Positions 9,911-57,626 of a DNA stretch of 64,000 nucleotides are shown piece after piece. The translations under genes and the position numbers were made by a program. Where the stretch lies: positions 8,464 to 72,463 of the IMG/VR virus record IMGVR_UViG_3300028800_001035. One strand, written 5' to 3'. The DNA comes from a virus. The stretch's first letter is position 1. Every line of letters starts with the position of its first letter. A model generated the notes under the pieces. That model worked only from the letters and a program-made list of their open reading frames with translations, did not search any database and was not told the DNA's origin.

Positions 9911-11689
9911 ATGGCCGTCAAGAGCGTTATAGAAGTCGAGGTCGACGACGGCGCGTTCAAGACGTTCAAGGCGCTCTTCGACAAATTCAAGGAGCAGGCC
10001 GCCGAGATCCCGGAGGTCTGGGCTCAAGTCGGCAAGGAGACCAAGGGCTCCGCCGGTAACTTCGCCGATATGACCGCCGCGCTTATGGCGCAGGCGCATT
10101 TGATGGACGCGCTCGAGAAGAAGCGCCGGGCCGCCGACCGGGCCGTCGACAAGGAAACGACGAGCTGGAAGCGCATCTCGACCTACTCGAAAGAGGTCGC
10201 GGGCAACATCGGCAAGGCGACGGTCGCGCTTCTCAAGTGGGGAGCCTTGACCGGCGTCGTCTCCGGCCTCCTAGGCGGGGGCGGCCTCTACGGGATAGAC
10301 CGCCTAGCCCTCGGCGTCGGGGCCGGTAGGCGCTCGTCCCTGGGACTAGGGATCGGCTACGGCGAGCAGAAGTCCTTCGAGACCAACTTCGGCCGGATCG
10401 TCGACCCGAACTCCTTCCTTTCCGGGGTCAACGAATCCCTTCACGACGTTACCAAGCGCTGGATGCTCCAGGCGGCGGGCGTCAAGGCTTCGACGATCGC
10501 GGGCGGCGACACCGGGGCGGTCGGGGTCGAACTCCTCAACTCCGTCAAGACCCTCGTCGACCGGACCCCGGCGAACCAGCTTCAGCAGCTCTCGGATTCC
10601 CGGGGGCTCGGTCAGTTTTATTCCCTCCAGGACCTCGTCCGGCTCAAAGCCACCTCTCGCGAGGAGCTCGCGACGCAGGGCGCAGCGTTCCGACGCGACG
10701 CGGGCTCGTTCGGTCTCGACGACCGGACGCAGCGCCGCTTTCAGGACTTCGCGACCCAGCTCTCCCGGGCCGGTCGCAAGATCGAGACGGTCTTCGTCGA
10801 AGGCCTCTCCCCCCTGGTCCCGTCCCTCTCCAAATTGTCAGAATCCGTCGCCGACGCGCTCGGCTCGTTCCTCAAGAGCATCAAGCCGTCCGACGTCGAC
10901 GCGATCGGAAAAGACATAACCGACTTCGCGAAGTACCTCGGCTCGCCCGAGTTCAAGAAGAACCTTCACGACTTCGGCGCGGACGTCGGAAGCCTCGCGC
11001 ACGCGATCGCCGACGCGCTCCACGCGCTCGGCAAGCACTCCGTCCAGGACGCCGCGTTCGGCGCGGCGGCGGGTTTCGTCGTAGGCGGCGTACCCGGCGC
11101 GGTCGTTGGCGGCCTCGTTGGCGGCGCAGTCGGCGCTGGTCGCGATGGCGTAACGGTCTCGCACGTCGAAGGCGGCAAGACGATCGTCGATAGACCCGAC
11201 CTCGTCGGGAAGGGCTTCGTCGACGACGGCAAGTTTCACGTCCTTCATCCCGAGACCTGGGGTCGCGGCTGGACCCGGCCGAACGATACCAACCCCGGCA
11301 ACATCGAGAAACTCGACGGGACGGGCTATCGGACTTTCGCCAATCCTGGTGAGGGCGTTCGCGCGGTCGCGGATCAGCTCAAGCGGTACGAATACTCGAA
11401 CAAGTGGGGGCACCTCGATACGATCGCGAAGATCATCGCGACCTACGCTCCCGCCAAGGCCGGAAACAACGTCGGCGCGTACATCAAGGACGTCGTCGGG
11501 CAGACGGGGTACAAGGCCGATCAGCATCTAGAACTTTCCGACAATAGGGTCCTCGCGAAGCTGACGTCGGCGATCCTCCGCCACGAGAACATCAAGAAAA
11601 ATTCGGGCTACACGCCGGAGAAGACCTTGCAGATCATCAACAATACGGGCGGCAACGCGATGGTCGTCGCCTCGCAGGCCGCTAGGTGA
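9911..11689 (+). CDS. tape measure protein with C-terminal lysozyme-like domain
   Basis: Ala/Gly-rich helical protein; C-terminal NPGNI...F...GVRA...TIAKIIATYAP...AYIKDV motif. Confidence 0.8.
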   Translation: MAVKSVIEVEVDDGAFKTFKALFDKFKEQAAEIPEVWAQVGKETKGSAGNFADMTAALMAQAHLMDALEKKRRAADRAVDKETTSWKRISTYSKEVAGNIGKATVALLKWGALTGVVSGLLGGGGLYGIDRLALGVGAGRRSSLGLGIGYGEQKSFETNFGRIVDPNSFLSGVNESLHDVTKRWMLQAAGVKASTIAGGDTGAVGVELLNSVKTLVDRTPANQLQQLSDSRGLGQFYSLQDLVRLKATSREELATQGAAFRRDAGSFGLDDRTQRRFQDFATQLSRAGRKIETVFVEGLSPLVPSLSKLSESVADALGSFLKSIKPSDVDAIGKDITDFAKYLGSPEFKKNLHDFGADVGSLAHAIADALHALGKHSVQDAAFGAAAGFVVGGVPGAVVGGLVGGAVGAGRDGVTVSHVEGGKTIVDRPDLVGKGFVDDGKFHVLHPETWGRGWTRPNDTNPGNIEKLDGTGYRTFANPGEGVRAVADQLKRYEYSNKWGHLDTIAKIIATYAPAKAGNNVGAYIKDVVGQTGYKADQHLELSDNRVLAKLTSAILRHENIKKNSGYTPEKTLQIINNTGGNAMVVASQAAR

Positions 11690-12842: not shown

Positions 12843-13834
12843 TGCGGTATTACAAGATCGTTCTCAAGAACGCGACGAGCGGCGAAGTCATCCGGCCCGC
12901 CTCGATGACGAACCTCGACGCCGATTCGAGCTACGCGAGCTACGCGGGCGGCGCGACCCTTCCGGGCGCGCTCAACGTCGAGCTCGACCTCCCGGTCTCG
13001 TCCTTCGCAACGCCAGCCGGAGCGGCCTACGTTAAGATCTGGGGCGTCTCCCTCGCGGAGATCGCCCAGTCGAACGACCTCGCCGGTTGCAAGATCGAAG
13101 TCTACGGCGGAATGCAGAAAGGCCTTCCGCTCGCCAAGCCAGCGCAGGCGGGGCTCTTGGTTCAGGGGGTGGTTTCGCAGGCCTTCGGCAACTGGGTCGG
13201 GACCGAGATGTCCCTCGACCTGATCGTCGTAGCCGACGCCGGGACGAGCGAAGCGCCGAAGAACATCGTCCTCGACTGGAAGAAAGGCGCGACCCTCTCG
13301 GACGCGCTTTCCTCGACCTTGACGAACGCGTTCCCGGGATCGACGGCGAAGATCAACATCGACCCCGGCCTCGTCGCGACGCAGGATCAGCAGGGGTTCT
13401 ACGCGACGATGACGCAGCTAAACTCCTACCTCGTCTCGGCGAGCAAGGGGATTATAAAGCGCGACGGCTACATCGGGGTTCAAGTCGCGCAGCTCGGCAA
13501 CGCCTTCAACGTCTACGACGGGACGACGAAGTCGACGCCGAAGGAGATCGCGTTCGAGGACCTACTCGGGCAGCCGACGTGGATCGGACCTAGCGTCGTT
13601 CAATTCAAGACGGTTATGCGGGCGGACGTCGTCCTCGACGACTACGTCAAGCTCCCCGCGCCTCAGGTCTCCGCGACGGCGGCGGGAACGCCGCCGTTCG
13701 GGAGCGGGATCAAGCAGAAGAGCGCGTTCCAGGGTTCGTTTCAGATCATAGACGTGCATAGCTACGGAAGCTTCCGGCAGCCCGACGCCTACGCTTGGAA
13801 TACGACGTTCAACGCGGTCCCGGAGCTGCAATGA
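12842..13834 (+). CDS. baseplate hub protein
   Basis: GTG start at 12842; position before the spike gene. Confidence 0.65.
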   Translation: MRYYKIVLKNATSGEVIRPASMTNLDADSSYASYAGGATLPGALNVELDLPVSSFATPAGAAYVKIWGVSLAEIAQSNDLAGCKIEVYGGMQKGLPLAKPAQAGLLVQGVVSQAFGNWVGTEMSLDLIVVADAGTSEAPKNIVLDWKKGATLSDALSSTLTNAFPGSTAKINIDPGLVATQDQQGFYATMTQLNSYLVSASKGIIKRDGYIGVQVAQLGNAFNVYDGTTKSTPKEIAFEDLLGQPTWIGPSVVQFKTVMRADVVLDDYVKLPAPQVSATAAGTPPFGSGIKQKSAFQGSFQIIDVHSYGSFRQPDAYAWNTTFNAVPELQ

Positions 13835-14870: not shown

Positions 14871-16297
14871 GCACGGGACTGCCGCTCGTCATGACCGCCG
14901 CCGGTCCGCAGCCGACCGCGCCCGCGACGCTCCGCGCGGAACTCCTCGCGTCGGTCGCGGCGACCAACCCGGGCTACACGGCGAACCTGCCCGCCTCGCT
15001 GATCGAGGACGTCGCGAGCACGGACGTCGGCGCGCTCGTAATCGCCGACACGGCCCGCGTCGAAACCGTCAACTCCCTGACGCCCTACGGCGCGAACCCC
15101 TTCCTGCTCAACCAGCTCGGGCAGGTCTACGGCGTCCCGATCGGCGAGCCGACGAGTACGTCGGTCTTCCTCGTCTTCTCCGGCCCGGCGGGCTTCGTCA
15201 TCGGGAAGGGCTTCCTCGTCTCGGACGGGACGCACCAGTACGCGGCGGCCGACGGCGGCGTCATCGACGGAACGCTTCAGTCGACCCCCCTGTTCTTCGT
15301 CGCGACCTCGCAGGGATCTTGGCCGGTCCCGGCCAACTCCGTGACGACGTTGATCACGTCGATCCCGACTTCGGTTAGCACCATTACCGCGACGAACCCA
15401 CTCCCGGGCGTTCCCGGCATCGCGACCGGCGAGACCGAGGAGTCCTACCGGGCGCGCGTCCTTCAGGCCGGGCTCGCGGCGAGCCAGGGGATGACGCGCT
15501 ACCTCAAGACGCTCCTCGGGCAAGTCTCGGGAACGCAGACGCGCTTGATCTCGGTGCGGCAAATCGTCGGCGCGGGATGGGAAGTCATCTGCGGCGGCGG
15601 CGATCCCTACGAGGTCGCGTTCGCGATCTTCCAGGCGCTCTTCGACATCAACACGCTCGTCGGCTCGACGATAAAGATCACCGGGATTACGAACGCGACG
15701 CTCGGCGTCGTCACGACGGACCTCAACCACGGGCTCGTGACGGGGCAGAACAACGTTCACATCGCCGGGGTCGTCGGAATGACCGGCGCGAACGGAGGCC
15801 CGTATACCGTAACCGTTCTGACAGAGAAGACTTTCACGTTCGGGGTCAACACGAGCGGCTTCGGGGCCTACGTCTCCGGCGGCGTCGTTACGCCGAACGC
15901 GCGGAACGTCGTCGTCGACGTTGACGATTATCCCGATACGTATGCGATCCCGTTCGTCAACCCGCCGCAGCAGTCCGTGACGATGAACGTTACGTGGAAC
16001 ACCAACGCGACAAACTTCGTTAGCGCGGCGGCGGTCGCGCAGCTCGCGATCCCGGCGCTGACGGACTACGTCAACTCGATCGGCGTCGGCCAGCCGATCA
16101 ACCTCCTCGAGATGACGACGATCTTTCAGGCGGCGATAACGCCGGTTTTGATTCCGGACCTCCTCGTCCGCCTCGTCTTCTCCGTCAACATCAACGGCGT
16201 GACGACCGCTCCCCCGGCTGGCGAGAGCGTCATCAACGGCGACCCGGAGTCCTATTTCTTCGCCGCGCAGTCCGGAATAGTGGTCGTTCAGGGATGA
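14867..16297 (+). CDS. baseplate J-like wedge protein
   Basis: LNQLGQVYG and GETEESYRARV motifs; FCCH-like insert. Confidence 0.85.
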   Translation: MSTGLPLVMTAAGPQPTAPATLRAELLASVAATNPGYTANLPASLIEDVASTDVGALVIADTARVETVNSLTPYGANPFLLNQLGQVYGVPIGEPTSTSVFLVFSGPAGFVIGKGFLVSDGTHQYAAADGGVIDGTLQSTPLFFVATSQGSWPVPANSVTTLITSIPTSVSTITATNPLPGVPGIATGETEESYRARVLQAGLAASQGMTRYLKTLLGQVSGTQTRLISVRQIVGAGWEVICGGGDPYEVAFAIFQALFDINTLVGSTIKITGITNATLGVVTTDLNHGLVTGQNNVHIAGVVGMTGANGGPYTVTVLTEKTFTFGVNTSGFGAYVSGGVVTPNARNVVVDVDDYPDTYAIPFVNPPQQSVTMNVTWNTNATNFVSAAAVAQLAIPALTDYVNSIGVGQPINLLEMTTIFQAAITPVLIPDLLVRLVFSVNINGVTTAPPAGESVINGDPESYFFAAQSGIVVVQG

Positions 16298-17125: not shown

Positions 17126-18232
17126 ATGGTCAACACCTTCCTCTACGCGAACAACGCCAAGTCGGCCCTCGCCGGGGCGATCACGAACGTCGCGACGTCG
17201 GCGAACTTGACGTCCGGCTCCGGCGTCCTCTTCCCGAACCCGGTCGCCGGACAACAGTTCGCGATGACCTTCGTCGACGCGGCGACTGGCCTCCTCAACG
17301 AGATCGTCTACGTCACGTCGCGGTCGGGCGATACCGTCACGATGGTTCGCGCGCAAGAAGGTACGACCGCCCTCGCCTGGAGCGCCGGAGACATCGCGGC
17401 GAGCCTTATGACGGCGGGGAACATGGCGCAGTTCCTTCAGCCGGGAAATACGACCTACCTTCGAACGCGGCTTGCGACGAATACTACGTTCTACGCGTCG
17501 AACACCGGAAACGATAGCACAGGCGACGGCACCGTCGGCAATCCGTGGGCGACGATGGCTCACGCTATCGCCGTCGTATATCAAAGCTATGACGCGAATG
17601 GCGCAACGGTAACAATCAAATGGAATGCTGCCGTTACAAACACTGAAAATTTGATCATAAACGGGCCGATGGTCGGCGTCGGATTGCCTTCTAATTTCGT
17701 CTTGGATTTCAACTCTCAGACGATGAGCCCGTCGGCTACGGCCGATTGCATAATCGCGCAAATGAACGCGCTTGTCTCCATTCAGAACGTTATCCTCACG
17801 AATACGCACTCCGCCGGGTGCCTTACGGCTCAGTATGGTGGCCAAATTCAAATCGCAGCTGGTGTTACCTTCGGAAGCGCGACCGGTGCAAATCATATTC
17901 TTGCTCAGGTAGGCGGCCGGGTAACGTCTAGCGCAAATTATACGATCACCGGTAGCGCGGCTTCGCACGTAAATTGCAACGACAACGGCATTGCTGTAAT
18001 GCTAGGCGGGGCGACGACGACAATTACCGGAACGCCCGCCTTTTCTCTCGCGTTTATCTTTTGCAATTCCAACGGGTTCTTCGGTTGGACCGCCGCAACA
18101 TTCTCTGGCGCTGCAACGGGATCGCGCTACAGCGCGTCGCTTAATGGTGTTATCTTCACGAATGGCGCGGGCGCGACTTATTTTCCAGGAAATTCGGCTG
18201 GCTCAACATCGACCGGCGGACAGTACGACTAA
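17126..18232 (+). CDS. tail fibre / receptor-binding protein
   Basis: Baseplate-anchor N-terminus (ANNA...EIVYVTSRSGD...RAQEGT), GNDSTGDGT..NPWAT motif, lower-GC C-terminal half. Confidence 0.8.
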   Translation: MVNTFLYANNAKSALAGAITNVATSANLTSGSGVLFPNPVAGQQFAMTFVDAATGLLNEIVYVTSRSGDTVTMVRAQEGTTALAWSAGDIAASLMTAGNMAQFLQPGNTTYLRTRLATNTTFYASNTGNDSTGDGTVGNPWATMAHAIAVVYQSYDANGATVTIKWNAAVTNTENLIINGPMVGVGLPSNFVLDFNSQTMSPSATADCIIAQMNALVSIQNVILTNTHSAGCLTAQYGGQIQIAAGVTFGSATGANHILAQVGGRVTSSANYTITGSAASHVNCNDNGIAVMLGGATTTITGTPAFSLAFIFCNSNGFFGWTAATFSGAATGSRYSASLNGVIFTNGAGATYFPGNSAGSTSTGGQYD

Positions 18233-18765
18233 TGACCTCCCTCGCCTGGGGCGCTCGCGTCTCCCCTCTCTTCCGGACGACGGTCGTCGGAATCGCGAGC
18301 GACCTCGCGATCTCCGACCCGTCGTGGCTTATGGCCGCGATGGCGTTCGAGACCGGGGAACGGTTCGCGCCCGACGTCCGCAACGGCGCGGGCTCCGGCG
18401 CGGTCGGCTTGATCCAGTTTATGCCGCAAACCGCCGCCGCCTTGGGAACCTCGACCGACGAGCTCGCCGCGATGACGCCCGAGACGCAGCTCGGCTTCGT
18501 TAAGGCCTACTTCGAGCCGCGCGCCGGTAGGCTCAACAGCCTCGGAGACGTCTACGGTGCTATCCTGTGGCCCGCGATGATCGGCAAGCCCGACGACGCG
18601 GTCGTCTTCGACGAGGCCGACCCGCACCACCCGAAGCTCTACCTTCAGAACAAGGGCCTCGACCTCAACGCCGACGGTAAAATAACCAAGGCCGAAGTCG
18701 TCTCGCGCGTCGCGCGCGAGCTCGACCGGGGCCTCCTCCCGAACAACTCGACGGAGATCGTATGA
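18232..18765 (+). CDS. endolysin (lysozyme / SLT-like fold)
   Basis: AMAFETG catalytic Glu, GAVGLIQFMP motif, EF-hand-like DLNADGKIT. Confidence 0.8.
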   Translation: MTSLAWGARVSPLFRTTVVGIASDLAISDPSWLMAAMAFETGERFAPDVRNGAGSGAVGLIQFMPQTAAALGTSTDELAAMTPETQLGFVKAYFEPRAGRLNSLGDVYGAILWPAMIGKPDDAVVFDEADPHHPKLYLQNKGLDLNADGKITKAEVVSRVARELDRGLLPNNSTEIV

Positions 18766-21700
18766 ATATCAAGAAGCATACCCGCGCGCTCGCCTTCCTC
18801 GCCCCCCTGCTCTTTGCGGCGACCGCCGCGCTCGGCCAGTCCTCGCCGAATTTGGTGACGGGGCAGATCCCGACCGCCGCGCAGTGGAACTCCTATTTCG
18901 CCTCAAAGCTCGACTACACCGCCCCTCTAGCCGCGATCGCGACGACCGGCTCCGCGAGCAACCTGATCACCGGAACCGTCCCCGTCGCGCGGCTCCCAAT
19001 CGCGACGACCGGCGCGATCGGCGGCGTCAAGCCGGACGGGTCGACGATTACTATCGGCCTCGACGGAACGATCACCTCCGTTTCGACCGGTGCTATCCCG
19101 TGCACGACGACCCCGAACAGCGTCCAGTACGACGCGGCGGGAGCCCTCGGCTGCGTTTCCGGCGTCACCTCCGACGCGACGGTCATGACGTTCGCACCGA
19201 GCGCGCTCAAGCTTTCCGGGTCTTCTTCCGGGGCGTCGTTCCTCAACGCGCCCGCGACCGGCGGCGGCCTCCTCGTCCTCCCCCCGGGGGCCGACACCCT
19301 CGTCGCCCGGACCTCGACCGACACCTTAACCGGCAAGTCGATATCAGGGGGTGCGAATACCTTTACCAATATCCCGAACGCGGCGCTGACCAACCCCGGT
19401 CTGACCCTCGGCTCGACCGGCCTAACCCTCGGCGCGACGACGACGACCGTCGCCGGGTTGACCCTGACGACCCCGACGATTGCGCAGATCGTCAACACCG
19501 GGACGCTCTCCCTCCCGACCGCGACCGATACCTTGGTGGCGCGTGCGACGGCCGATACCTTGACCAACAAGTCGATGAGCGGGTCGGCGAACACCTTCAC
19601 CAACCTGCCGAACTCGGCGTTCACCAACCCCTCGCTGACCCTCGGCTCGACGCTCCTGACCCTCGGCGCGACGACGACCACGGTTGCGGGCCTTACCCTG
19701 ACCGCGCCGACCTTTTCGACGATCGTCAACACCGGGACGCTGACGCTTCCGATTTCAACCGACACCCTCGTCGCGCGGGCGACGACCGATACCTTGACCA
19801 ACAAGTCGATGTCGGGCGGAGCGAATACCTTCACCAACATCCCCAACGCGGCCTTGACGAACTCGAGCCTGACTATCGGATCGACCAACGTCGCCCTCGG
19901 CGCAACCGCCGCGACCGTCGCGGGGTTGACGCTTACCGCGCCGACCATCGCGACGATCGTCAACACCGGGACGCTAACCCTCCCGACCGCGACCGATACC
20001 TTGGTGGCGCGGGCGACGACCGACACCTTGACCAACAAGTCGATGAGCGGGTCGGCGAATACGTTCTCCAACATCCCGGTCGCGGCTTTGACCGGCGCGA
20101 CGACCACGATCAATACTATCGCCTGCGCGCTCGGCGGCTCTTGTACCGTTCCCGCTGCCGCCGGGACCTTGACCGGCTCGGCCCTCGCCTCCGGCGTAAC
20201 CTCCGCGCCGGGCGTGACCTCGATCAACGGCTCGACCGTTCCGACCGCGACCGATACCTTCGCGCTCCTCGCCGCGACCCAGACCTTGACGAATAAGACG
20301 CTCTCCGGCGCGTCGAATACGATCAACAACCTCAACGCCTCGAACGTCTCGAGCGGAACCCTCGCGACCGCGCGGACCGCCGTCGGCAAGTCCGTCCTCG
20401 ACCCGGGGACCGGCGTCCTCGAAGCGATGTCGCCGGTTCAAACCGTAACGGCGACGAGCAAGACCTTCGCGACGGCGGACTTCCAGCTCGTCACGCGCCG
20501 GACCAATTCCGGGACGGCGATGACCGACACCTTCCCGGCCTCCTCGGCGACCGGGCTCGTCAATGGCACTGTGATGACCGTCAACAACGTCGACGCGACT
20601 GCCATCGACACGATCACGGCGGGGTCCGGGACGACGATAGGCGGCAACGCGACCGACGTCCTCGAAGCCGGACGCTCGGCTGCCTATATCTATGACCTCG
20701 CGAACACGACCTGGCGGAAGAACTACAACTCCGGGACCGCAGCGATCTTCGCGGCGACCGGCGGCAACGTCGCGAACGACATAGTCACGATGAGGACGAG
20801 CTACGGTGGCGTTCAGGACAGCGGTACGGCGCTATCGAGCCTCGCCCTCAACGGGACCGGCGCGGTCATAACGACGAGCCAGTCGCCGACGGCGGCCGAC
20901 TTCAATACGACTTGCAAAACGTTCACGATCAACGCGACGTCGCTGACGATAACCTTACCGCAGGCGAATACCCTTCAGCCGAACGGCGGATGCTATTTCG
21001 TCAGTAACCCGTCGGCTTTTTCGGCGACCGTTGCCCCGAACGCCGCCGACAAGATCAACAACGGAACGACCGGCGCGAGCGTCTCCGTCGCGGCGGGCTC
21101 CTTGACCCTCGTTACGACCGACGGGATCAACGGCGACTTCCTCCCGCTCGGCGGCTCGAGCGGCTTCCCGATCACTCTCGGCTCGACCTCGGTCGGAGCG
21201 GGTTCGACGACGACGAGCATCTCCGGCTTGTCCCTCGTCGCGCCCGCCTTGGGAACACCCGCTTCCGGCGTCGCGACCAACTTGACCGGGCTTCCTTTGT
21301 CGACCGGCATCACCGGCTTCGGAACCGGCGTCGCGACGCTTCTTTCTGGCGCGGCTTCCGGAACGGGAGGCCCCGTCGGGACGACGTCCCCGTCGTTCTC
21401 GGGAACGGTCAACGCCGTCGCGCTCGTCCTCTCCGGCAACTTGACGACGAACGTCACCGGGTCGACGCAGTGCCTCAACGTCAACACGCTCGGCGTTATC
21501 TCCGGCTTCGGGGCGGCGTGCAGCGGCGTTCAATTGTCGGCCGCGAACGTCTGGTCGGCGCAGCAGAGCAACTCGGTGACGACGTTGACGATCTCGACGG
21601 CGACCTTCACGCCCGACGGCTCGGCGAACAACTACAAGATCGGATTGACGAGCGCCTGCCCGTGCACGCTCGCCAACCCGAGCGCGACTCCCGTCGCCGG

Positions 21701-21902
21701 AACGGCCGGGCTGATGGAGGTCGATCAAGACGCGACCGGCAGCCGAACCTTCGGAACTTATGGTTCGCAGTATCAATTCCCGGGAGGGACCTCGACCTTG
21801 ACGCTCAGCACGGCGGCGAACGCCGTCGACTATGTTCCTTTTTACGTCAGGGACTCGACACATATCGTTTTGAGCCCTCCGATCCTCAACCCGGTTCACT
21901 AA
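18762..21902 (+). CDS. Thr-rich repetitive fibre-like protein with predicted Sec signal peptide
   Basis: N-terminus MNIKKHTRALAFLAPLLFAATAALG; 78-aa TLTNK repeats; C-terminal TLSTAANAVDYV fibre-tip-like domain. Confidence 0.75.
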   Translation: MNIKKHTRALAFLAPLLFAATAALGQSSPNLVTGQIPTAAQWNSYFASKLDYTAPLAAIATTGSASNLITGTVPVARLPIATTGAIGGVKPDGSTITIGLDGTITSVSTGAIPCTTTPNSVQYDAAGALGCVSGVTSDATVMTFAPSALKLSGSSSGASFLNAPATGGGLLVLPPGADTLVARTSTDTLTGKSISGGANTFTNIPNAALTNPGLTLGSTGLTLGATTTTVAGLTLTTPTIAQIVNTGTLSLPTATDTLVARATADTLTNKSMSGSANTFTNLPNSAFTNPSLTLGSTLLTLGATTTTVAGLTLTAPTFSTIVNTGTLTLPISTDTLVARATTDTLTNKSMSGGANTFTNIPNAALTNSSLTIGSTNVALGATAATVAGLTLTAPTIATIVNTGTLTLPTATDTLVARATTDTLTNKSMSGSANTFSNIPVAALTGATTTINTIACALGGSCTVPAAAGTLTGSALASGVTSAPGVTSINGSTVPTATDTFALLAATQTLTNKTLSGASNTINNLNASNVSSGTLATARTAVGKSVLDPGTGVLEAMSPVQTVTATSKTFATADFQLVTRRTNSGTAMTDTFPASSATGLVNGTVMTVNNVDATAIDTITAGSGTTIGGNATDVLEAGRSAAYIYDLANTTWRKNYNSGTAAIFAATGGNVANDIVTMRTSYGGVQDSGTALSSLALNGTGAVITTSQSPTAADFNTTCKTFTINATSLTITLPQANTLQPNGGCYFVSNPSAFSATVAPNAADKINNGTTGASVSVAAGSLTLVTTDGINGDFLPLGGSSGFPITLGSTSVGAGSTTTSISGLSLVAPALGTPASGVATNLTGLPLSTGITGFGTGVATLLSGAASGTGGPVGTTSPSFSGTVNAVALVLSGNLTTNVTGSTQCLNVNTLGVISGFGAACSGVQLSAANVWSAQQSNSVTTLTISTATFTPDGSANNYKIGLTSACPCTLANPSATPVAGTAGLMEVDQDATGSRTFGTYGSQYQFPGGTSTLTLSTAANAVDYVPFYVRDSTHIVLSPPILNPVH
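19293..20100 (+). repeat. 234-bp tandem coding repeat (about 3.4 copies)
   Basis: DTLVAR units start at 19293, 19527, 19761 and 19995. Confidence 0.9.
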
Positions 21903-22871
21903 ATGAGGAAGCTCCTCGCATCCGCGCTTCTATGGTTGGCGCTCTTCGCTTCGCCCGCCTTCGCGGCGACGACGACGGTTTTCCTGACGTCCGGCACGAC
22001 TTGGACCGTTCCGGCCAGCGCCACCGTCACCGCCATCGAAGCTATCGGACCTGGTGGCAATAGCGGCGCGGCCGTTCTCAATACGAGCGGCGGCGGCGGC
22101 GGTCAGGGGGGTGGCTACGGCAAGGTCACGTCACCGTCAAACGTTCACCCCGGCGACGTCCTCAACATCCAAGTCGGCGCGGGCGGATCGACGAACCCGA
22201 CTTTCGTTCAGGACGACACGAATACGGTCATCGCCCAAGGCGACTACGGCGCGAACGGTTCTACGCTAACCGGCGGTTCTCGATCTCAGACCAATGTAGG
22301 TGCGGCATCTACGGCGGCGGGCGGAGCGGGCGGATCAGTCGCTTCCGGTGCGCGGGGTGGTGCGGGCGGCGGCGCTGCTGCCGGACCTTCCGGCGCTGGC
22401 GGTCACGGCGGCTCCATTACGGGAACGGGCAATTCCGGAGCGGGAGGTGGCGGCGCGGACGGCGGAGCCAATGCCGTCAACAACGGCAGCAATCCCGGCT
22501 CGTCTGGCGGCAACGGCCCGCTCGGTTCGGGCGGCGGTACGACGGCGACGGCAGGCGTCAATGGCGGCGGCGGCGGCGGCTCTACCGGGAGCAGCGGCTT
22601 TCCGGCTCAACCCGGCGCGGGCGGTCCCGGCACGAATTACGATTCGACCCACGGCTCCGGCGGTGGCGGTGGTGGTGGCGGCGGTGCAACGAGCTTGACG
22701 GCGGCGGCGGGCGGCGCGGGCGGACTTTACGGCGGCGGCGCGGGCGGTCCGGGCGCGGCATCTACGGGCACCAACGGAGCCGTCGCTTCCGGCAAAGCGG
22801 GCTTGATCGTTATTACTTACACGACGCCCAGCGGTTCTCCCCCAACCTTCACGTTTAGGTCGATACCGTGA
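21903..22871 (+). CDS. glycine-rich fibre-like protein with predicted signal peptide
   Basis: MRKLLASALLWLALFASPAFA; TSGTTWTVP...IGPGG...GGGG...GLIVITY glycine-rich domain. Confidence 0.75.
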   Translation: MRKLLASALLWLALFASPAFAATTTVFLTSGTTWTVPASATVTAIEAIGPGGNSGAAVLNTSGGGGGQGGGYGKVTSPSNVHPGDVLNIQVGAGGSTNPTFVQDDTNTVIAQGDYGANGSTLTGGSRSQTNVGAASTAAGGAGGSVASGARGGAGGGAAAGPSGAGGHGGSITGTGNSGAGGGGADGGANAVNNGSNPGSSGGNGPLGSGGGTTATAGVNGGGGGGSTGSSGFPAQPGAGGPGTNYDSTHGSGGGGGGGGGATSLTAAAGGAGGLYGGGAGGPGAASTGTNGAVASGKAGLIVITYTTPSGSPPTFTFRSIP

Positions 22872-24871
22872 TCAACGAAGGCCGCCTCCTCAAGCATCTA
22901 ACCTGTATCATCGCTTTCGTAATGATGACCGCTGTTTGGTCAGGTGAAGCGCAAGCCGTTCATCGCGGAACGAACGCGTCGATCGCCGCCGGGCCGGTCC
23001 TTCAAAACGTTGCCGTCAACTACGGCGTCTTGACGCCGAGTGGCCTCGGAAGCGTCCGCCTGAGCTCCCAGGACCTCAACTACGGAACGGGCCTCAACCC
23101 GTCCGGCCTAGACGTCCTCGTGAGCGGGGGCTGCGCGAAGTGGAGCGAGACCTTCGTCAGTGGGCGGTCGTCGACCGACTTCAACTTGATCCCCGCGCAC
23201 ACGGTCGAAGGAACGAGCGCGAAGACGCCGAACATCTCTTCCACAGGCGTCGGGCACATGACCGGGGCCTACGTCTTCAACATCGTCTGTGAGGATTCCT
23301 CCGGGACCCCCCTGGCGACAAAGACGCTCACCTACAATTCCGCGACGAACGCGGTCAACATCGGGACCGGCGACCGCAACTTCTCGAATTGGCCATCCGG
23401 CTTCGGCAACGTCGCCGGGGCGAAGGTTCTCTTCAGCACCGGCTTCGTTCACGACAGCGGGCGCATATTCTATACCGCCGCATTCTCTCAACAGGTGATT
23501 TGGACTTGGGCGGATACCTCGCGGCCAGGGGCGGAAATTCAGCTCGAATTTGCAAGCGGGTCCGGGAACGTCCTTGTCAAGGATATGTCTTTCACGGGGT
23601 CATCAGTCGCCGGTATCGGTTCGCTCTTAACTCTCGCTGGCACCGGCGGTCCTATGTCGGCGGACAACGTTCACGGCTATTTGAGCCAAGCCATAATCGG
23701 GAACAGTCAGACGGCCTTCGTTTCGCCGGGCGGCGTTAGCGGTACGGTCAACAATTTCAGTTGTGAGTGGTGCGCCACCGGGGCGGCGGTCGGGTCAAAC
23801 TATATAATGACAAACGGGTATTTCCGTTATGTCAATAATAACGGCCTATTCTTCGTCAGCTTGCACGACACCGAAATTGATGATGTTACGGTTGCCTCGC
23901 TTGTAACTAATGCGCTCAACCAACATCCCGATTGTATGCAGCGGGCAGACGGATCGTCGCAAATACGGCTCGTCGTCAAACGTTTCATGTGCATCGGAGC
24001 GGATGCTACTTCGACGGCGCAAGGCCCTTGGTTCGGCGGCGCGGTTCTCGGGAGCAACGGCGGCATACAGGGCTATATCAGCGCCGGATGCGGCAACACA
24101 AATCCCGGCAAAAACCTCTGCATCACAAGCGGCGGTCTCCTGACTGGTTCTGCCGGATCTGTCATCTATTCGCCATCCGGTTCGCCTGTCGGCGCGTCCG
24201 ACCTCGTGACTATCGGCAACTGCGGCTCGAACTGTCTCGGTCAGACCTCGGTGGCGCTCAACCTCGCGTCCGATATCAACTACGGAAGCGCGGGAGCTCC
24301 GGCGACGTTCTACGGTCTTCAGACCGTGGACAATACGTTCGATATGATCGCCTACGCGGCGAATACCTTCAACGGCTTGGTGAGCGGGTCGGAGGCGGGA
24401 ACCTCGACCGTTTCGCGGTTCACGTATATCGAGCAGGACTACCCGGGAGCGGGAGCGGCTGGCGTCGGCTTTACTTTGGGAAATTGCGAAGTCACCCAGG
24501 TACATCTCGGAACGTTCAGTCTTAGTGGCGGGATTATTTACGAGGGGATCGGCACTCGCAAGGCGAACCCGATAACCCCGGCGACGCCATGCTCTCCGAA
24601 CGTCCCGCCCGCCAACACGACGGTTTCGAACGTCACCTCGGCGAGCGGCAATACGACGACGCTCAACGCGGCCTTCGCCGGGGGCAACCCGCAACCGATC
24701 CTCGAGGCCGTCCTCCCCGCGACGTACAAAGGCGAGACCGTCGCGCAGCTCAAGCATTATTACTGCGGCGTCCTAGCCGCGAAGGTCGCCGGTCCGCTCG
24801 ACGGCGGCGGGGGTACTTGGTACAACGCCTTCAACTCCAGCGGCAATTGGGCCGACGGAACGGCGTGTTGA
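22868..24871 (+). CDS. secreted-type beta-helix (pectin-lyase-like) protein
   Basis: Signal-like N-terminus ending AQA; HPDCMQ beta-helix motif; many Cys; lower GC. Confidence 0.55.
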   Translation: MINEGRLLKHLTCIIAFVMMTAVWSGEAQAVHRGTNASIAAGPVLQNVAVNYGVLTPSGLGSVRLSSQDLNYGTGLNPSGLDVLVSGGCAKWSETFVSGRSSTDFNLIPAHTVEGTSAKTPNISSTGVGHMTGAYVFNIVCEDSSGTPLATKTLTYNSATNAVNIGTGDRNFSNWPSGFGNVAGAKVLFSTGFVHDSGRIFYTAAFSQQVIWTWADTSRPGAEIQLEFASGSGNVLVKDMSFTGSSVAGIGSLLTLAGTGGPMSADNVHGYLSQAIIGNSQTAFVSPGGVSGTVNNFSCEWCATGAAVGSNYIMTNGYFRYVNNNGLFFVSLHDTEIDDVTVASLVTNALNQHPDCMQRADGSSQIRLVVKRFMCIGADATSTAQGPWFGGAVLGSNGGIQGYISAGCGNTNPGKNLCITSGGLLTGSAGSVIYSPSGSPVGASDLVTIGNCGSNCLGQTSVALNLASDINYGSAGAPATFYGLQTVDNTFDMIAYAANTFNGLVSGSEAGTSTVSRFTYIEQDYPGAGAAGVGFTLGNCEVTQVHLGTFSLSGGIIYEGIGTRKANPITPATPCSPNVPPANTTVSNVTSASGNTTTLNAAFAGGNPQPILEAVLPATYKGETVAQLKHYYCGVLAAKVAGPLDGGGGTWYNAFNSSGNWADGTAC

Positions 24872-24902
24872 CGAATTTTTTAACGAAGAAGGGCAACTAC
24901 CT

Positions 24903-25184
24903 ATGAAACGCATCGCATTGACTCTGTTCCTCCTCGCCTCGACCTCCGCCTTCGCCGAAGACGCCAAGCCGAAGCCGACCTGCGGCAAATCGGTCGAGGA
25001 CTGCCAGAAGGTCGTCGACGACCTGACCGGCAAGCTCGGCGAGATGACCCTCGCCTATCAGGGCGCGAGCGCGCAGCGCGACGCCAACGCCAACGCCGCC
25101 GCCAAGTCGGCCGCCGACGCCAACCTCGCCGCCTGGATCAACCAGCAAAAGGCCGCGATCGCCGCGCCTTCCGCGAAGAAGTGA
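24903..25184 (+). CDS. small secreted protein
   Basis: MKRIALTLFLLASTSAFA signal peptide, Cys pair, coiled coil. Confidence 0.65.
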   Translation: MKRIALTLFLLASTSAFAEDAKPKPTCGKSVEDCQKVVDDLTGKLGEMTLAYQGASAQRDANANAAAKSAADANLAAWINQQKAAIAAPSAKK

Positions 25185-25567
25185 TCCGCCTCCCGGCGGC
25201 GCTCGCGGTTTTCCTCCTCGCGGGCTGCGCCAACCTCGCCGCCTATCAACCCTACGTGGCGGACGTCAAGGACCGGAAGGCCCTCGCCGACGACGAGGTC
25301 GCCTGCCTCGCCCGCGCGGAGGCCTACAAGGCCCCCCTGTCGGGCCAAGCGATCGCGTCGGCGGCGCTACAGGGGGGCGCGGTCAACGCCGCCTCGGGCG
25401 TCCTCAACCCGCTCGCGCCGGTCTTGGGGAGCCTCGGCTACGCCTCCGGCGAGTTCCTCTCCGAGCTCGGGCTCTTGAGCTCGGCCCAGCGCCGGGTCTT
25501 CTTGATCTGCCTCTCTCATCGCGGGATGCGGAGCGGCCTCTACGACGTTCTCGATCCAAACCAATAG
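25181..25567 (+). CDS. lipoprotein
   Basis: Lipobox LLAGC; glycine-zipper-like core; CL..RG..V C-terminus. Confidence 0.7.
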   Translation: MIRLPAALAVFLLAGCANLAAYQPYVADVKDRKALADDEVACLARAEAYKAPLSGQAIASAALQGGAVNAASGVLNPLAPVLGSLGYASGEFLSELGLLSSAQRRVFLICLSHRGMRSGLYDVLDPNQ

Positions 25568-25576
25568 GGGGAAAGT

Positions 25577-25978
25577 ATGTCGCCGAATCTCAAGTTCGAC
25601 ATCAAGATAACCGGCAATCCGCTCGTCGACGGGGTCATCCTCAAGATGGTCGGGATGTTCGCGGGCGGCCTCGCGATCAACGCGGCGGTCTGGCTCAAGG
25701 CCCACGGCTTCGCGCCGGACTCCGAGATCCTGACGCAGGCGATCGGCGGCGTTATGGTCGGCGGCCTCGTCCTCGTCGCCGGTTGGTACAAGAGCAAGAA
25801 CGACTACGCGAAGGCCGCGCAGGGCGGAATCAACCTCGTCCTTAGCGGCGAGGCCATCGCCAAGGACGGGTCGACGATCATGAACATAGGAGCCCCGGGC
25901 TCGACCCCGCCGATGCCGGTGACGCCGAAGACCGGCGTCGAGATCATGAAGCTCGCGACCCCGGCGAAGGCCGCCTAG
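25577..25978 (+). CDS. holin-like membrane protein
   Basis: Two hydrophobic segments; directly upstream of the spanins. Confidence 0.55.
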   Translation: MSPNLKFDIKITGNPLVDGVILKMVGMFAGGLAINAAVWLKAHGFAPDSEILTQAIGGVMVGGLVLVAGWYKSKNDYAKAAQGGINLVLSGEAIAKDGSTIMNIGAPGSTPPMPVTPKTGVEIMKLATPAKAA

Positions 25979-25979
25979 C

Positions 25980-26222
25980 TTGGGCGCTTTTTGGACTTGG
26001 CTCCGGGAGACCGTGACGGGCGTTATACTAGGGTTCTTCGGGAAAGGCCCGGGAACCGTTTCCCCGGCCGAGCGGGTCGGGCAACTGGAGAGCGAGAATG
26101 CGGGACTCAAGAAAGAGATCGACGTCGCGGACCGCGCGGAGGCTGCTCGCGATCGCGTTCCTGACGACCCTCGGAGCGTGTACGACGACCCCGCCAACCG
26201 CCGGGAGCGCCCTCCCGGCTAG
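25980..26222 (+). CDS. i-spanin (Rz-like)
   Basis: N-terminal hydrophobic anchor plus coiled coil; overlapped by a lipoprotein gene. Confidence 0.6.
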   Translation: MGAFWTWLRETVTGVILGFFGKGPGTVSPAERVGQLESENAGLKKEIDVADRAEAARDRVPDDPRSVYDDPANRRERPPG

Positions 26223-26403
26223 GACGACGCCGACGGCGACCGCGCGCTACGTTCCCTGCGCAGCCGACCCGATCATCTCCTACAACGCTCCGGACCCGGA
26301 TCACCCGGTCAACGAGACGGCGGCGAATATCTACGACACGCCGCCTACTATTTCACAAATACGAAAGAACAACGCCGCGCGCATCGAAAGCTGCGGCAAG
26401 TGA
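26098..26403 (+). CDS. o-spanin (Rz1-like lipoprotein)
   Basis: Lipobox LGAC, Pro-rich, C-terminal Cys; overlaps the i-spanin in another frame. Confidence 0.65.
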   Translation: MRDSRKRSTSRTARRLLAIAFLTTLGACTTTPPTAGSALPARTTPTATARYVPCAADPIISYNAPDPDHPVNETAANIYDTPPTISQIRKNNAARIESCGK

Positions 26404-26720
26404 CGTCGGCACAAAAGGTCAAAAGCGTGGCAGAGAACGCCTGGGTTACGTTCTTCGGACGCGGGATGCAGCTGATCGGGACGCCGCTTATGGTCGCCCT
26501 GATCCTCGCGGTCCTTCACAAGATAGACAATTTCGGACACCGGATCGACGTCCTCGAGGACAAGATGTCGGTCGCCTATGCCGACCCGTACCACGCGACC
26601 GACGCGAAGCGCGACTTCGAGTGGCGCGACCGGAACGCCGCCGGAATCGAATCCCACGTCGAGAACCTCGACGGACGCGTGCAGGCCCTCGAGCTGGCCA
26701 ACGCGCGGGGACGCAAATAA
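26400..26720 (+). CDS. membrane protein with coiled coil
   Basis: One transmembrane segment then heptad repeats. Confidence 0.55.
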   Translation: MTSAQKVKSVAENAWVTFFGRGMQLIGTPLMVALILAVLHKIDNFGHRIDVLEDKMSVAYADPYHATDAKRDFEWRDRNAAGIESHVENLDGRVQALELANARGRK

Positions 26721-27238: not shown

Positions 27239-27457
27239 CTACCTCCCGGTCTCCGGCGCGTCTAGGGCGACCCGCGCCGTCCCGTCGGGTTCGGAGAAGG
27301 CCGCGAACTCGACGACGGCTAGGACGGCTCCCGCGACCGCCGGGAGGGCGAGGAAGGCGAGAAAGAGGAGCGCGACGAGGGTCAACCCTCCCGACCCCCT
27401 GACCTCGCGGCGGAACAGGGGGCGGGCTTCGGGCTTCGGGATATAGACGCGGCTCAT
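27239..27457 (-). CDS. small membrane protein
   Basis: MSRVYIP start overlaps the upstream stop; hydrophobic segment. Confidence 0.55.
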   Translation of the reverse strand: MSRVYIPKPEARPLFRREVRGSGGLTLVALLFLAFLALPAVAGAVLAVVEFAAFSEPDGTARVALDAPETGR

Positions 27458-28032
27458 CGGCTCGGCTCCTTGTAGAATTGGTGGCCGCCGATCGACGCGG
27501 TCTCGCGCCAACCCTTCCAGCGGACCTTGGTCAGCGCGCCGTTCTCGTAGCGGGTCGCGCCGCCGGTCGGGTCGGGGGCCTCGTCGCGGTCGATCCAAGA
27601 AAGGAGGGCGACCTCGTAGGCGTCGTTCCAGGCGTCGTGCTCGCGGATCGAGTGGTCCCGCCCGTCGTTGACCCAGGAGAACTGGCAGACGCCGTTCCGG
27701 GGGTCGCATTGCGAGACGACCTTGCAGGCCTTGCGGGGGAAGACGCCGCCCTTCATCCGATTGAGGACGACGTTCGTGACGTACCACATCCCGTCCTCGC
27801 CCTCGCCCCGCGCCTCGAAGTAATTGTTCTCGGCGATGCATTCAATCTCGCGGAGGTCCTCGTCGGAGAGACTCGCCGCCGCGCTCCGGACCCGCGCGTC
27901 GAGCGAGGTTCGGATCACGACGACGCCGTCGCGGGCGGCGATCGCGTCGCGGTAGCCGCCGGAGAAGAGGAAGACGATCCCCGCGAGCGCGAGAAGGCTC
28001 ATCGCGAAGGCGGCCGGGCCGAGGCGGTTCAA
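27454..28032 (-). CDS. SleB-like cell wall hydrolase (Hydrolase_2) with N-terminal membrane anchor
   Basis: CIAENNYFEARGE...VVLNR...CQFSW...GGATRY...IGGHQFY; TTG start after ggagg. Confidence 0.85.
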   Translation of the reverse strand: MNRLGPAAFAMSLLALAGIVFLFSGGYRDAIAARDGVVVIRTSLDARVRSAAASLSDEDLREIECIAENNYFEARGEGEDGMWYVTNVVLNRMKGGVFPRKACKVVSQCDPRNGVCQFSWVNDGRDHSIREHDAWNDAYEVALLSWIDRDEAPDPTGGATRYENGALTKVRWKGWRETASIGGHQFYKEPSR

Positions 28033-28127
28033 GACCGCCTCCCGTTCGACGCCGCGACGATGATCGCCAAGAAGATGAAATTGAGGAAGATCGAGGCGAC
28101 GAGCGCCCCCGCATAGTGTTCGTGCAT
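28029..28127 (-). CDS. 32-aa membrane peptide
   Basis: MHEHYAGALVASIFLNFIFLAIIVAASNGRRS; RBS ggag. Confidence 0.5.
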   Translation of the reverse strand: MHEHYAGALVASIFLNFIFLAIIVAASNGRRS

Positions 28128-28132
28128 TTGCT

Positions 28133-28146
28133 TCGTCTCCGGTTAT
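28133..28146 (-). promoter_or_regulatory. conserved leader/RBS motif ATAACCGGAGACGA (copy 1)
   Basis: Identical copies at 34516-34529 and 63303-63316; one-mismatch copy at 46515-46528. Confidence 0.7.
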
Positions 28147-28185
28147 ATACGCGAGAAGCATAGGCACGAATTTCCTAACGGGAGG

Positions 28186-35857: not shown

Positions 35858-36522
35858 AACAGCACCTCTTGTTTTTGCATATCTTCGCGGAGCGCAGCGA
35901 CCGCGCCGTCGAGGACGGTCCGCCCTTCGTTGCGCCGCTTGATCTCGAAGTAGACCTCCGCCGCCGCGCGGCAATCGGCGAGCGCGCCGTGAGCGCCGGG
36001 ATAGTCGCGCCCGAAGAAGAAGCGGTACGCCTCGGTCAGCTTCGGGGTCTTGAATTGGTCCGCCCGGCCCCAGCGGATCATCTGTTCGGTCGCGGGAAGG
36101 CGACAATGCGGCGACGCGAGCTCGGTCGTGTCGATCACCTCGCCCGGCCCGGGGAGCGTGACGGGCTTGCCGTTGCGCGCGATCGCTTGCCGCATTATCG
36201 CGAGGTCGAACTTCGGATTGTGCGCGATGATCGCGTCGGCGCGAGAACGGAGGTGGACGTAGGCCGGGACGACGAGGGAGAGCGGGACGCCAAACTCCTC
36301 GGCGACCGCCGTCGTTATACCGTGAACGCGCACGGCGGAGTCGGGGATAACGTAGCGGCCTTCGGGGCGGACGATCAACTCGAGCGTCGCGAACTCCGCG
36401 CCGTTGTCTCCGTCGACGAGGAGGCAGCCGAGCTGGACGAGCGGCGGCTGCGCCGGGTGATCGTCGGCGAGGCGGTCGCTCGGGATGCCGCAGGTCTCGG
36501 TGTCGAGGAAGAGGAGTTTCAA
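35854..36522 (-). CDS. DEDDh 3'-5' exonuclease (Pol III epsilon-like)
   Basis: DTET, VHGIT, AHNPKFD, DT, HGALAD motifs. Confidence 0.9.
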   Translation of the reverse strand: MKLLFLDTETCGIPSDRLADDHPAQPPLVQLGCLLVDGDNGAEFATLELIVRPEGRYVIPDSAVRVHGITTAVAEEFGVPLSLVVPAYVHLRSRADAIIAHNPKFDLAIMRQAIARNGKPVTLPGPGEVIDTTELASPHCRLPATEQMIRWGRADQFKTPKLTEAYRFFFGRDYPGAHGALADCRAAAEVYFEIKRRNEGRTVLDGAVAALREDMQKQEVLF

Positions 36523-36532
36523 GAGAGGCCCC

Positions 36533-57411: not shown

Positions 57412-57626
57412 GACGGCTTCTCCTCTTCGACTTCTTCCTTCGTCTGCCACTTGTGGCACGGCGTCGTCTTCTCGTCGACGGTCGGGTACGCCGTCACGAG
57501 CCCGACGCCCGGAACGGGGAACGACGACGGCGACCGCTCGATGCACATCTTGATTCGGAAGTTGATCCTCCCCGACGGGTCCTGCGCCGGAACGGCGTGA
57601 AAGCAATTCATGCAGTTGTCGGTCAT
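57408..57626 (-). CDS. small Cys-rich protein
   Basis: CxxC...C...C. Confidence 0.5.
   Translation of the reverse strand: MTDNCMNCFHAVPAQDPSGRINFRIKMCIERSPSSFPVPGVGLVTAYPTVDEKTTPCHKWQTKEEVEEEKPS

Follow-up and report, generated by a model that had tools for sequence, protein, structure and literature searches.

Five consecutive late genes with predicted export signals, including fibre- and tailspike-like proteins, in an uncultured soil phage

Five consecutive late genes on the + strand, at 18762-25567 of a 64,000-nucleotide stretch of viral DNA (the window; bases 8464-72463 of the single 72,463-base virus record IMGVR_UViG_3300028800_001035, completeness rating 100%), encode proteins that all begin with predicted export signals. 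The three large products among them resemble a tail fibre, a glycine-rich receptor-binding domain and a beta-helix tailspike or glycan enzyme. Tailed-phage assembly is by the textbook wholly cytoplasmic. Export of the block proteins by the Sec pathway of the host and their folding in the periplasm are well supported by leader conservation and cysteine content. The whole proposal that is put forward below, which includes attachment of the exported proteins to the particle at lysis, is tentative and is given a probability of about 0.4. What the sequences show are the signals and how well they are conserved, the pattern of cysteines, the fold and homology matches, and the return of the arrangement in relatives; actual export, disulphide bonds, trimer formation and, above all, particle attachment are what we infer.

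Predicted export signals and cysteines of the block proteins

Export signals were called with a custom heuristic on 89 open reading frames (ORFs) picked by third-position G+C over the whole 72-kb genome. The heuristic looks for an n-h-c pattern in which the n-region carries a net positive charge, the core is uncharged and hydrophobic over 7 residues or more (mean Kyte-Doolittle hydropathy 1.6 or higher), and positions -3 and -1 are occupied by small residues. The five ORFs for which the original prediction had claimed export signals were all present at its coordinates and scored 35.7-39.5, four of them as Sec signals of the signal peptidase I type and the fifth as a lipoprotein signal of the signal peptidase II type. 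The first gene (18762-21902) encodes a fibre-like protein of 1046 amino acids (aa) with a predicted signal in residues 1-25, corresponding to nucleotides 18762-18836 (score 37.9). It is followed by a glycine-rich receptor-binding-type domain protein of 322 aa (21903-22871; signal 1-21, score 39.1) and a beta-helix protein of 667 aa (22868-24871; signal 1-30). The cleavage sites named earlier for these three proteins, ALG/QSSPN, AFA/ATTTV and AQA/VHRG, were recovered by the heuristic. As also described before, a small secreted protein and a lipoprotein come after the three large ones, the former being an Ala-rich protein of 93 aa (24903-25184; signal 1-18, score 35.7) with predicted cleavage at AFA/EDAKP, and the latter a protein of 128 aa (25181-25567) with the lipobox LAGC (Cys16).

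The block is packed as one operon, where the stop of the upstream lytic transglycosylase (SLT) domain gene overlaps the start of the fibre gene, and the 322-aa gene begins directly after the stop codon of the fibre gene. Two more gene pairs overlap, and the intergenic gaps measure 31 and 9 bases. A score of at least 30 was reached by ten of the 89 ORFs, and five of these are the block; the rest are an o-spanin candidate, an ORF at 58117-58770 (-) and three doubtful ORFs. A run of at least five among ten positives in 89 had a frequency of 4.9e-4 in 200,000 shuffles, which makes chance an improbable source of the run.

Conservation of the signals in homologues, proposed as a check in the original prediction, was seen in diverged sequences at 35-69% identity. 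Leaders are kept in five of the seven homologues of the 667-aa protein, in a pair of neighbouring homologues of the 322-aa and 667-aa proteins on the metagenome contig L081, in three homologues of the fibre (P0010, P0011 and P0023) and in the homologue of the lipoprotein (P0131), and the n-h-c pattern with small -3 and -1 residues is retained across the homologues despite sequence drift. The seven homologues of the 667-aa protein have 33-60% identity to it and the five leaders score 38.8-51.5; of the other two, the first begins within the aligned region, and the N-terminus of the second is longer and has a sub-threshold score of 29.3.

Ten rhizosphere DNA runs, and no RNA run among those listed, contain 5-26% of the sampled words, and short contigs from four of the runs match the region. 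These contigs of 150-540 bases show presence and one variant only, and contig joints at about 22100-22570, the glycine-rich low-complexity part, were not interpreted. The variant, from run X2, is one contig with a depth of about 3. It differs in 27 of 302 bases at 23924-24225, and the 15 listed differences (23968-24175) all fall in third codon positions, which suggests purifying selection on the 667-aa gene in a related strain. In the leader codons of this gene the X2 variant shows two synonymous changes together with L11I and C13W only.

Cysteine makes up 1.33% of the five block proteins compared with 0.43% in 19 upstream structural proteins (Fisher p 2.8e-5). The cysteines of the block proteins lie in nearby pairs, and the counts in the mature proteins after predicted cleavage are all even, being 10, 0, 14, 2 and 2 in gene order. 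This pattern would suit disulphide formation. Leader conservation, the variant, the cysteine density and the even counts all agree with leaders that are translated and under selection as export signals, and with folding under oxidising conditions, and the earlier suggestion that the Cys-containing proteins are exported and fold in the periplasm is thus strengthened by the conserved signals, the cysteine enrichment and the even mature counts.

Signal-like N-termini and several cysteines were also seen in two overlapping ORFs of the early region, 57623-58135 (-) of 170 aa and 58117-58770 (-) of 217 aa, for which no Pfam family was found; predicted exported proteins are thus present beyond the block too.

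Fibre, adhesin and beta-helix modules and their recurrence

The first block protein was described as a Thr-rich repeat fibre, and it contains 19.2% Thr and a 234-nucleotide unit (78 aa) repeated 3.4 times at 19291-20093. Its domain order is a leader, a conserved mature N-terminal motif, the 78-aa Thr-rich repeats, a conserved domain of about 135 aa (residues 529-663, nucleotides 20346-20750) and a C-terminal part. It matches the virion structural protein family phrog_6002 (E 3e-10) and has ten cysteines in nearby pairs. Searching the PDB by sequence with the single 1046-aa protein gave no match, and the predicted fold of its C-terminal 566 residues had a predicted local distance difference test (pLDDT) score of 43.5, too low to use. 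With residues 525-800 as the query, the Atlas returned small viral clusters; T4_gp9_10_N members make up 13% of one of them, which is a lead only. A Pfam 2-oxoacid_dh match on the fibre was taken to be a low-complexity artefact, although the same family occurs among the precomputed domains of some relatives.

The repeat region (residues about 170-540) has 162 confirmed relatives in IMG/VR phage proteins. From these 80 loci were kept, 74 of them with a complete 5' end, and in 73 of the 74 the relative is leaderless, most starting with one conserved fibre N-terminus; the sole exception, L072, has a lipoprotein-type start. The leader is thus not a general feature of such fibres, since 73 of 74 relatives lack such an N-terminus. 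In a large protein collection leaders are carried by 10 of the 119 best homologues, and the region behind residue 530 is common mainly to those ten, the matches being otherwise short or of low identity. Four homologues (P0013, P0021, P0045 and P0125) have a leader followed by the N-terminal motif typical of most leaderless relatives. For P0021, a genome-contig scan gave nothing useful and a phage-collection search gave repeat matches only.

The 322-aa protein is a leader-bearing fibre-type protein with 29.8% Gly, in keeping with the earlier description. A profile of 26 family members matches the Pam3 tail fibre (7yfw, 7ypx; E 3e-8) over its TNF-like and first glycine-rich parts, from residue 77 of gp24 onwards, and in the 322-aa protein this domain lies directly behind the leader. 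The protein is in this respect like the glycine-rich adhesins of the Pam3 gp24/S16 gp38 type, as its family profile hits the receptor domain of gp24. The single sequence had no match in the PDB sequence search, and none to Pfam Gly_rich_2 (PF21722) at E ≤0.1 or in a six-frame search, which 5 of the 26 family members pass. In the Atlas it sits among viral Gly_rich_2-type clusters, with a structural template-modelling score of 0.83 to a cluster that has 22% Gly_rich_2 members. Leaders were found in 67 of the 150 best family representatives. On contig L081 the 322-aa homologue adjoins the 667-aa homologue with overlapping stop and start, and both bear leaders. A complex prediction for the mature 667-aa and 322-aa proteins scored 0.00 and is evidence for neither side.

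For the 667-aa protein, earlier called beta-helix-like, the predicted model (pLDDT 70.6) has an immunoglobulin (Ig)-like N-terminal domain at about residues 45-160 and a right-handed parallel beta-helix at about 160-600. Fold comparison of the model bore out the name with Z scores of 22-24 to beta-helix enzymes and tailspikes (24.3 to 7o7a, 24.2 to 2pyh, 23.7 to 6f7k and 23.0 to 2vbe). The structural matches include PL6 alginate lyases, AlgE epimerases, Pel9A, RbmB and the tailspikes of Sf6, Dettilon and CBA120, with 282-336 aligned residues, root-mean-square deviations of 2.9-4.2 Å and a sequence identity of 8-13%. Foldseek alone gave weak template-modelling scores; among viral models in BFVD, phage beta-helix, tailspike and pectate-lyase-type proteins were matched. 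Residues D339, H353, D355, Q358 and R372 are invariant in eight sequences, and on the predicted fold the protein is a candidate polysaccharide lyase or hydrolase. In all seven family members counted, the mature protein has an even number of cysteines, 12-16. Searches of Pfam, PHROG and NCBIfam gave nothing for this protein, and with its alignment a genome-contig scan gave nothing useful and a viral scan nothing. The gene has a GTG start and a weak ribosome-binding site.

The 93-aa protein has two cysteines, at residues 27 and 34, and the 128-aa lipoprotein has two besides Cys16. No Pfam, PHROG or NCBIfam family was found for either. The only homologue found for the 128-aa protein, P0131, is 66% identical and keeps the lipobox, and the 93-aa protein has a weak match to a 79-aa protein of locus L095 (E 3e-4 in a tiny database).

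Searches with the block in the GenBank phage collection, both by DNA and by protein, gave no match. A scan with an alignment of the 1046-aa fibre and three leader-bearing homologues gave six more IMG/VR loci. L090 is a true relative, with identities of 43% for the hub, 56% for baseplate J, 55% for the DUF2612-like protein and 63% for the fibre anchor. Its short leaderless fibre is followed, in this order, by proteins of 482 aa (with a leader), 108 aa and 1229 aa (with a leader) and by a small leader-bearing ORF, and then by a PG_binding_1 lysin, a membrane protein and a leader-bearing protein (15411-16217) that by inspection is like an outer-membrane beta-barrel and has no Pfam match. The domain of residues 529-663 is 57% identical in the 1229-aa protein, which by inspection also has a pectate-lyase-type motif. 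L091 (51% G+C) has baseplate genes, leaderless fibres, a leader-bearing 994-aa protein, a leader-bearing barrel-like protein (12907-13692) and lysis genes. Its 994-aa protein is 45% identical to the fibre of the window in the mature N-terminus and 58% in the 529-663 domain, and ends by inspection in an S74-chaperone-like tail. Two leader-bearing tail-region proteins were found in L092 and three in L095, each set followed by a small leader-bearing protein, and those of L095 sit between baseplate J-like and DUF2612-like genes. Taken over L090, L091 and L092, the leader, the N-terminal motif and the 529-663 domain are shared with the fibre at 48-58% identity, and the distal parts differ, with motifs of beta-helix type by inspection. 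Fibres without a leader, in L094 and L095, have the 529-663 domain too. A leader-bearing protein of 455 aa that lies between baseplate genes of L095 (7080-8447) has no match to proteins of the window.

Proposed fates of the proteins after their predicted export

In the proposal favoured here, the host Sec pathway would take all five products out of the cytoplasm, four of them being processed by signal peptidase I and the last as a lipoprotein. The three large ones would be tail fibre or tailspike modules, namely a long trimer-type fibre, a glycine-rich tip like that of Pam3 gp24 that would bind sugars or a receptor, and a beta-helix glycan enzyme, in which the secretion signal would occupy the place where a particle-anchoring domain normally sits. 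They would fold in the periplasm with disulphide bonds, aided or held by the 93-aa protein and the lipoprotein, and would be kept apart from the cytoplasmic particles until the downstream holin, lysin and spanins open the envelope. During seconds of mixing of cytoplasm and periplasm inside a closed outer membrane, the fibre would dock to the particle via its conserved proximal module. Once there it would be an accessory for host recognition and might bear the other two proteins as well. By a rough estimate a thousand fibres per femtolitre amount to about 1.6 micromolar, and docking within about 1 s of membrane permeabilisation would therefore be physically possible. Assembly would in this way be divided between two compartments, with head, tail and baseplate made in the cytoplasm and Sec-exported, disulphide-bonded appendages mounted at envelope breakdown, so that the lysis genes might carry out the last assembly step.

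Several features would favour such joining. The conserved leader-plus-proximal module with swapped distal parts is typical of particle-docked receptor-binding proteins, and the long shaft, the four homologues in which the leader precedes a canonical fibre N-terminus and the position of the L095 genes in a baseplate operon point in the same direction. By analogy, support may also come from Cellulophaga phage phi18:3 (NC_021794), in which gp085, gp086 and gp087 have Sec-type leaders by the same heuristic (scores 34.6, 41.4 and 40.5) and are called virion, structural or tail proteins from tandem mass spectrometry (MS/MS) proteomics in their GenBank notes. As in the block, three consecutive large leader-bearing proteins lie just upstream of the endolysin region. 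Unlike the phage studied here, phi18:3 is a podovirus of a Bacteroidota host, and its three proteins have no sequence similarity to the block and few cysteines (0, 1 and 3).

A number of points weigh against the proposal. The signal calls come from the custom heuristic, and the MS/MS detection in phi18:3 may reflect co-purification. The Pam3-type N-terminal alpha-helical docking domain is absent from the 322-aa protein, and since 67 of 150 relatives have leaders, the glycine-rich domain is often secreted as an independent protein. The slot that holds the lipoprotein in this phage holds outer-membrane-protein-like genes in L090 and L091, none of these products being an obvious part of a particle. 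The signal-less tail fibre that had been noted separately from the block is real: the gene at 17126-18232 (+) encodes a canonical leaderless tail fibre or short tailspike of 368 aa (phrog_8469 tail fibre, E 2e-19) with a heuristic score of 17.6, that is, no signal. Because this leaderless fibre exists, the phage may not need the block proteins on its particle. Residues 5-126 of the leaderless fibre are 45% identical to gp23 and 52% to gp24 of the myovirus PdC23, and 63% to the N-terminus of the L090 fibre. When gp21-gp31 of PdC23 were compared with the block proteins and the 368-aa fibre by BLASTP, only the 368-aa fibre matched the anchor at E ≤0.01.

The original prediction had left open whether the proteins join the virion or coat the infected cell with an appendage or exclusion layer; sequence cannot separate the two, and a third fate that it did not name, free action of the proteins, is about as likely as those. 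It is a real if rather unlikely possibility that the proteins are exported and never reach the particle, acting freely to cut or mask host polysaccharide or a receptor, which would keep progeny from being caught on debris or matrix and block late superinfection. The three large proteins show no recognisable particle anchor and the leaderless fibre is already present, the beta-helix protein combines invariant acidic and His residues with the fold of secreted glycan enzymes (PL6, AlgE, RbmB), and the leader-bearing glycine-rich relatives and the outer-membrane-protein-like genes of L090 and L091 suit this course equally. By its operon position the block would also be co-expressed with the lysis genes, and it includes a lipoprotein. 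For free action, however, it is not evident why a protein should have a shaft of 1046 aa built with fibre repeats, or a proximal module that stays conserved while the distal parts are exchanged, and free action does not sit well with the four homologues that keep the canonical fibre N-terminus behind the leader or with the phi18:3 proteins annotated as virion proteins. An arrangement on the surface of the infected cell, as appendage or exclusion layer, or a moron or conversion module, with the lipoprotein as anchor and a host secretion system for transport, appears improbable. In its favour are the lipoprotein and the small periplasmic partner in the same operon, and phage-derived fibre-like surface adhesins are known in PblA and PblB of Streptococcus phage SM1. 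G+C at third codon positions (GC3) is 0.68 in the leaderless fibre gene, 0.71 in the 322-aa gene and 0.74 in the 667-aa gene against 0.85-0.93 in neighbouring genes; for the latter two a recent acquisition is suggested, as a surface layer or moron would have it, and the lower GC3 of all three also fits recent exchange of host-recognition genes. The block genes are, however, translationally coupled to tail and lysis genes, promoter- and terminator-like sites around the block show no excess over shuffles and so do not set it apart, and no outer-membrane translocation domain was seen in Pfam-type domain searches of the block. A lysogenic benefit is unlikely because no integrase or resolvase was found in the 100%-complete record and because polymerase, primase and helicases are all encoded by the phage itself. 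Moron or conversion as the leading explanation was rejected because genes for lysogeny and expression signals of the block's own are both missing.

Least probable, and only marginally credible, is that the N-termini are not functional signals at all, being hydrophobic helices inside the particle or baseplate, or that the true starts lie downstream and the products are ordinary cytoplasmic fibres. The use of a custom heuristic, the GTG start and weak ribosome-binding site of the 667-aa gene, and a location that is that of tail-fibre genes would agree with this. It is contradicted by an n-h-c pattern with small -3 and -1 residues that is kept while the homologue sequences drift, by leader changes in the X2 variant that are synonymous or hydrophobic-for-hydrophobic, and by the lipobox kept in P0131. 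An oxidising compartment would agree with the high cysteine content and the even counts after cleavage, and 73 of the 74 fibre relatives are without such an N-terminus.

The proposal of particle joining, like its rivals, has partial counterparts in known systems. T5 Llp masks the FhuA receptor late in infection, and with lambda Lom and Bor it exemplifies exported lipoprotein or outer-membrane protein genes beside receptor-binding or lysis genes. Those proteins are small and not built from fibre or tailspike modules, unlike the large block proteins, and with no PHROG or Pfam match for the 93-aa and 128-aa proteins no similarity to the Llp, Lom or Bor type was seen. The right-handed beta-helix of the 667-aa protein is shared with the tailspikes of Sf6, Dettilon and CBA120 (TSP2) and with PL6, AlgE and Pel9A enzymes, but the tailspikes have an N-terminal particle-binding domain and no leader, where the 667-aa protein has a leader and the Ig-like domain. 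Pam3 gp24 has a docking helix, a cytoplasmic chaperone (gp25) and no leader, and the 322-aa protein has a leader instead of the docking domain. According to the sections drawn on from the Pam3 work, the TNF-like, glycine-rich domain of gp24 serves host recognition and a separate N-terminal helix docks to the baseplate (PMC9608196). A tailspike-type beta-helix with an export signal is also found in Pantoea stewartii WceF, a bacterial exported tailspike-like enzyme that trims the exopolysaccharide of its own cell and as such lends weight to free action; it is chromosomal, lies in an exopolysaccharide cluster and has a twin-arginine translocation (Tat) rather than a Sec signal, and in the sections drawn on no fibre or lectin partners are described, whereas the block is phage-encoded (PMC7949094). 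Sec-exported or signal-anchor-release endolysins of the fOg44 Lys44 and P1 Lyz type resemble the block as tailed-phage late proteins that use the host Sec pathway before lysis, but they are lysis enzymes and the block proteins are of receptor-binding types; in the excerpts used of a review of phage envelope-breaching enzymes, the term signal peptide is applied to endolysins only (PMC6116005). In the full-text literature searched, with supplements outside the search, no description of Sec-leader tail fibres or tailspikes of tailed phages was found.

Should export of receptor-binding proteins prove routine, leaders, disulphides and periplasmic partners would have to be reckoned with in predicting host range, in engineering phages and in making recombinant fibres and depolymerases, and virion proteomics would need to search for processed N-termini. 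Particle joining, if true, would make the timing of lysis a part of particle completion. Free action would mean that phages carry a receptor-destroying or receptor-masking arm made of their own receptor-binding modules, which would matter for superinfection exclusion and for how phages get away from capsules or biofilms. In both cases the module is a concrete gene set for testing, and phi18:3 is a cultured system.

Neighbouring lysis genes and the phage

The block had been placed inside the lysis cassette, downstream of an endolysin at 18232-18765 (+), and both statements hold in part. By position the block does separate a lysin gene from the holin gene, and the 177-aa product of 18232-18765 has an SLT domain (PF01464, E 3e-5). 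Its best PHROG matches are, however, to the C-terminal parts of hub and tail protein profiles (phrog_4928, E 6e-54; phrog_196 baseplate hub, E 3e-43), so that it may be a tail-associated lysin or an endolysin; no transmembrane segment was found in it by hydropathy. In PdC23 the order is fibres, lysozyme, holin and spanins, all contiguous; its lysozyme is unrelated to the SLT protein and its holin not similar to the holin candidate of the window.

The holin and spanin calls of the original prediction are plausible but weakly backed. The holin candidate (25577-25978, +) is a 133-aa protein with two transmembrane segments (hydropathy peaks at residues 16-38 and 51-69) and no Pfam or PHROG family match. 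A candidate spanin ORF of 80 aa (25980-26222, +) overlaps the o-spanin candidate, a 101-aa lipoprotein (26098-26403, +) with the lipobox LGAC and a match to the Rz-like spanin family phrog_456 (E 0.018), and another spanin candidate of 106 aa (26400-26720, +) has a transmembrane segment at residues 22-40 and a coiled-coil-like tail. Convergent with the late operon, a SleB-type cell-wall hydrolase (27454-28167, -; PF07486 Hydrolase_2, E 1e-16) begins with about 48 cytoplasmic residues and an N-terminal Ala/Gly/Leu-rich membrane segment (transmembrane peak at residues 49-67), and is a second endolysin candidate, possibly of the signal-anchor-release type. At the C-terminal end of the tape-measure-like protein (9911-11689, +), residues about 460-580 form a domain of lysin type (phrog_873 and phrog_2276), and counting this together with the SLT and SleB-type domains the phage has up to three muralytic domains.

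Upstream of the block, a contractile-tail structural module extends on the + strand from 22 to about 18765 and includes sheath, tape measure, hub, baseplate J, DUF2612-like and tail fibre genes. The major capsid protein is 58-59% identical to its counterparts in Klebsiella, Yersinia and Pantoea myoviruses, PdC23 being one example. Elsewhere the genome encodes a family-A DNA polymerase, a primase, helicases and a methyltransferase, and across it no tyrosine or serine recombinase, integrase or resolvase was found. This uncultured soil phage is probably virulent, because it has its own replication genes and no tyrosine or serine recombinase. A gene of the head module, at 22-1962 (+), encodes a 646-aa protein (phrog_6216) that starts with a NUDIX hydrolase-like segment, and its PdC23 counterpart is annotated as a nudix hydrolase. 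The G+C content of the genome is about 65%, and it falls to 0.573 at 36001-38000, a region with short ORFs only that lies between replication genes.

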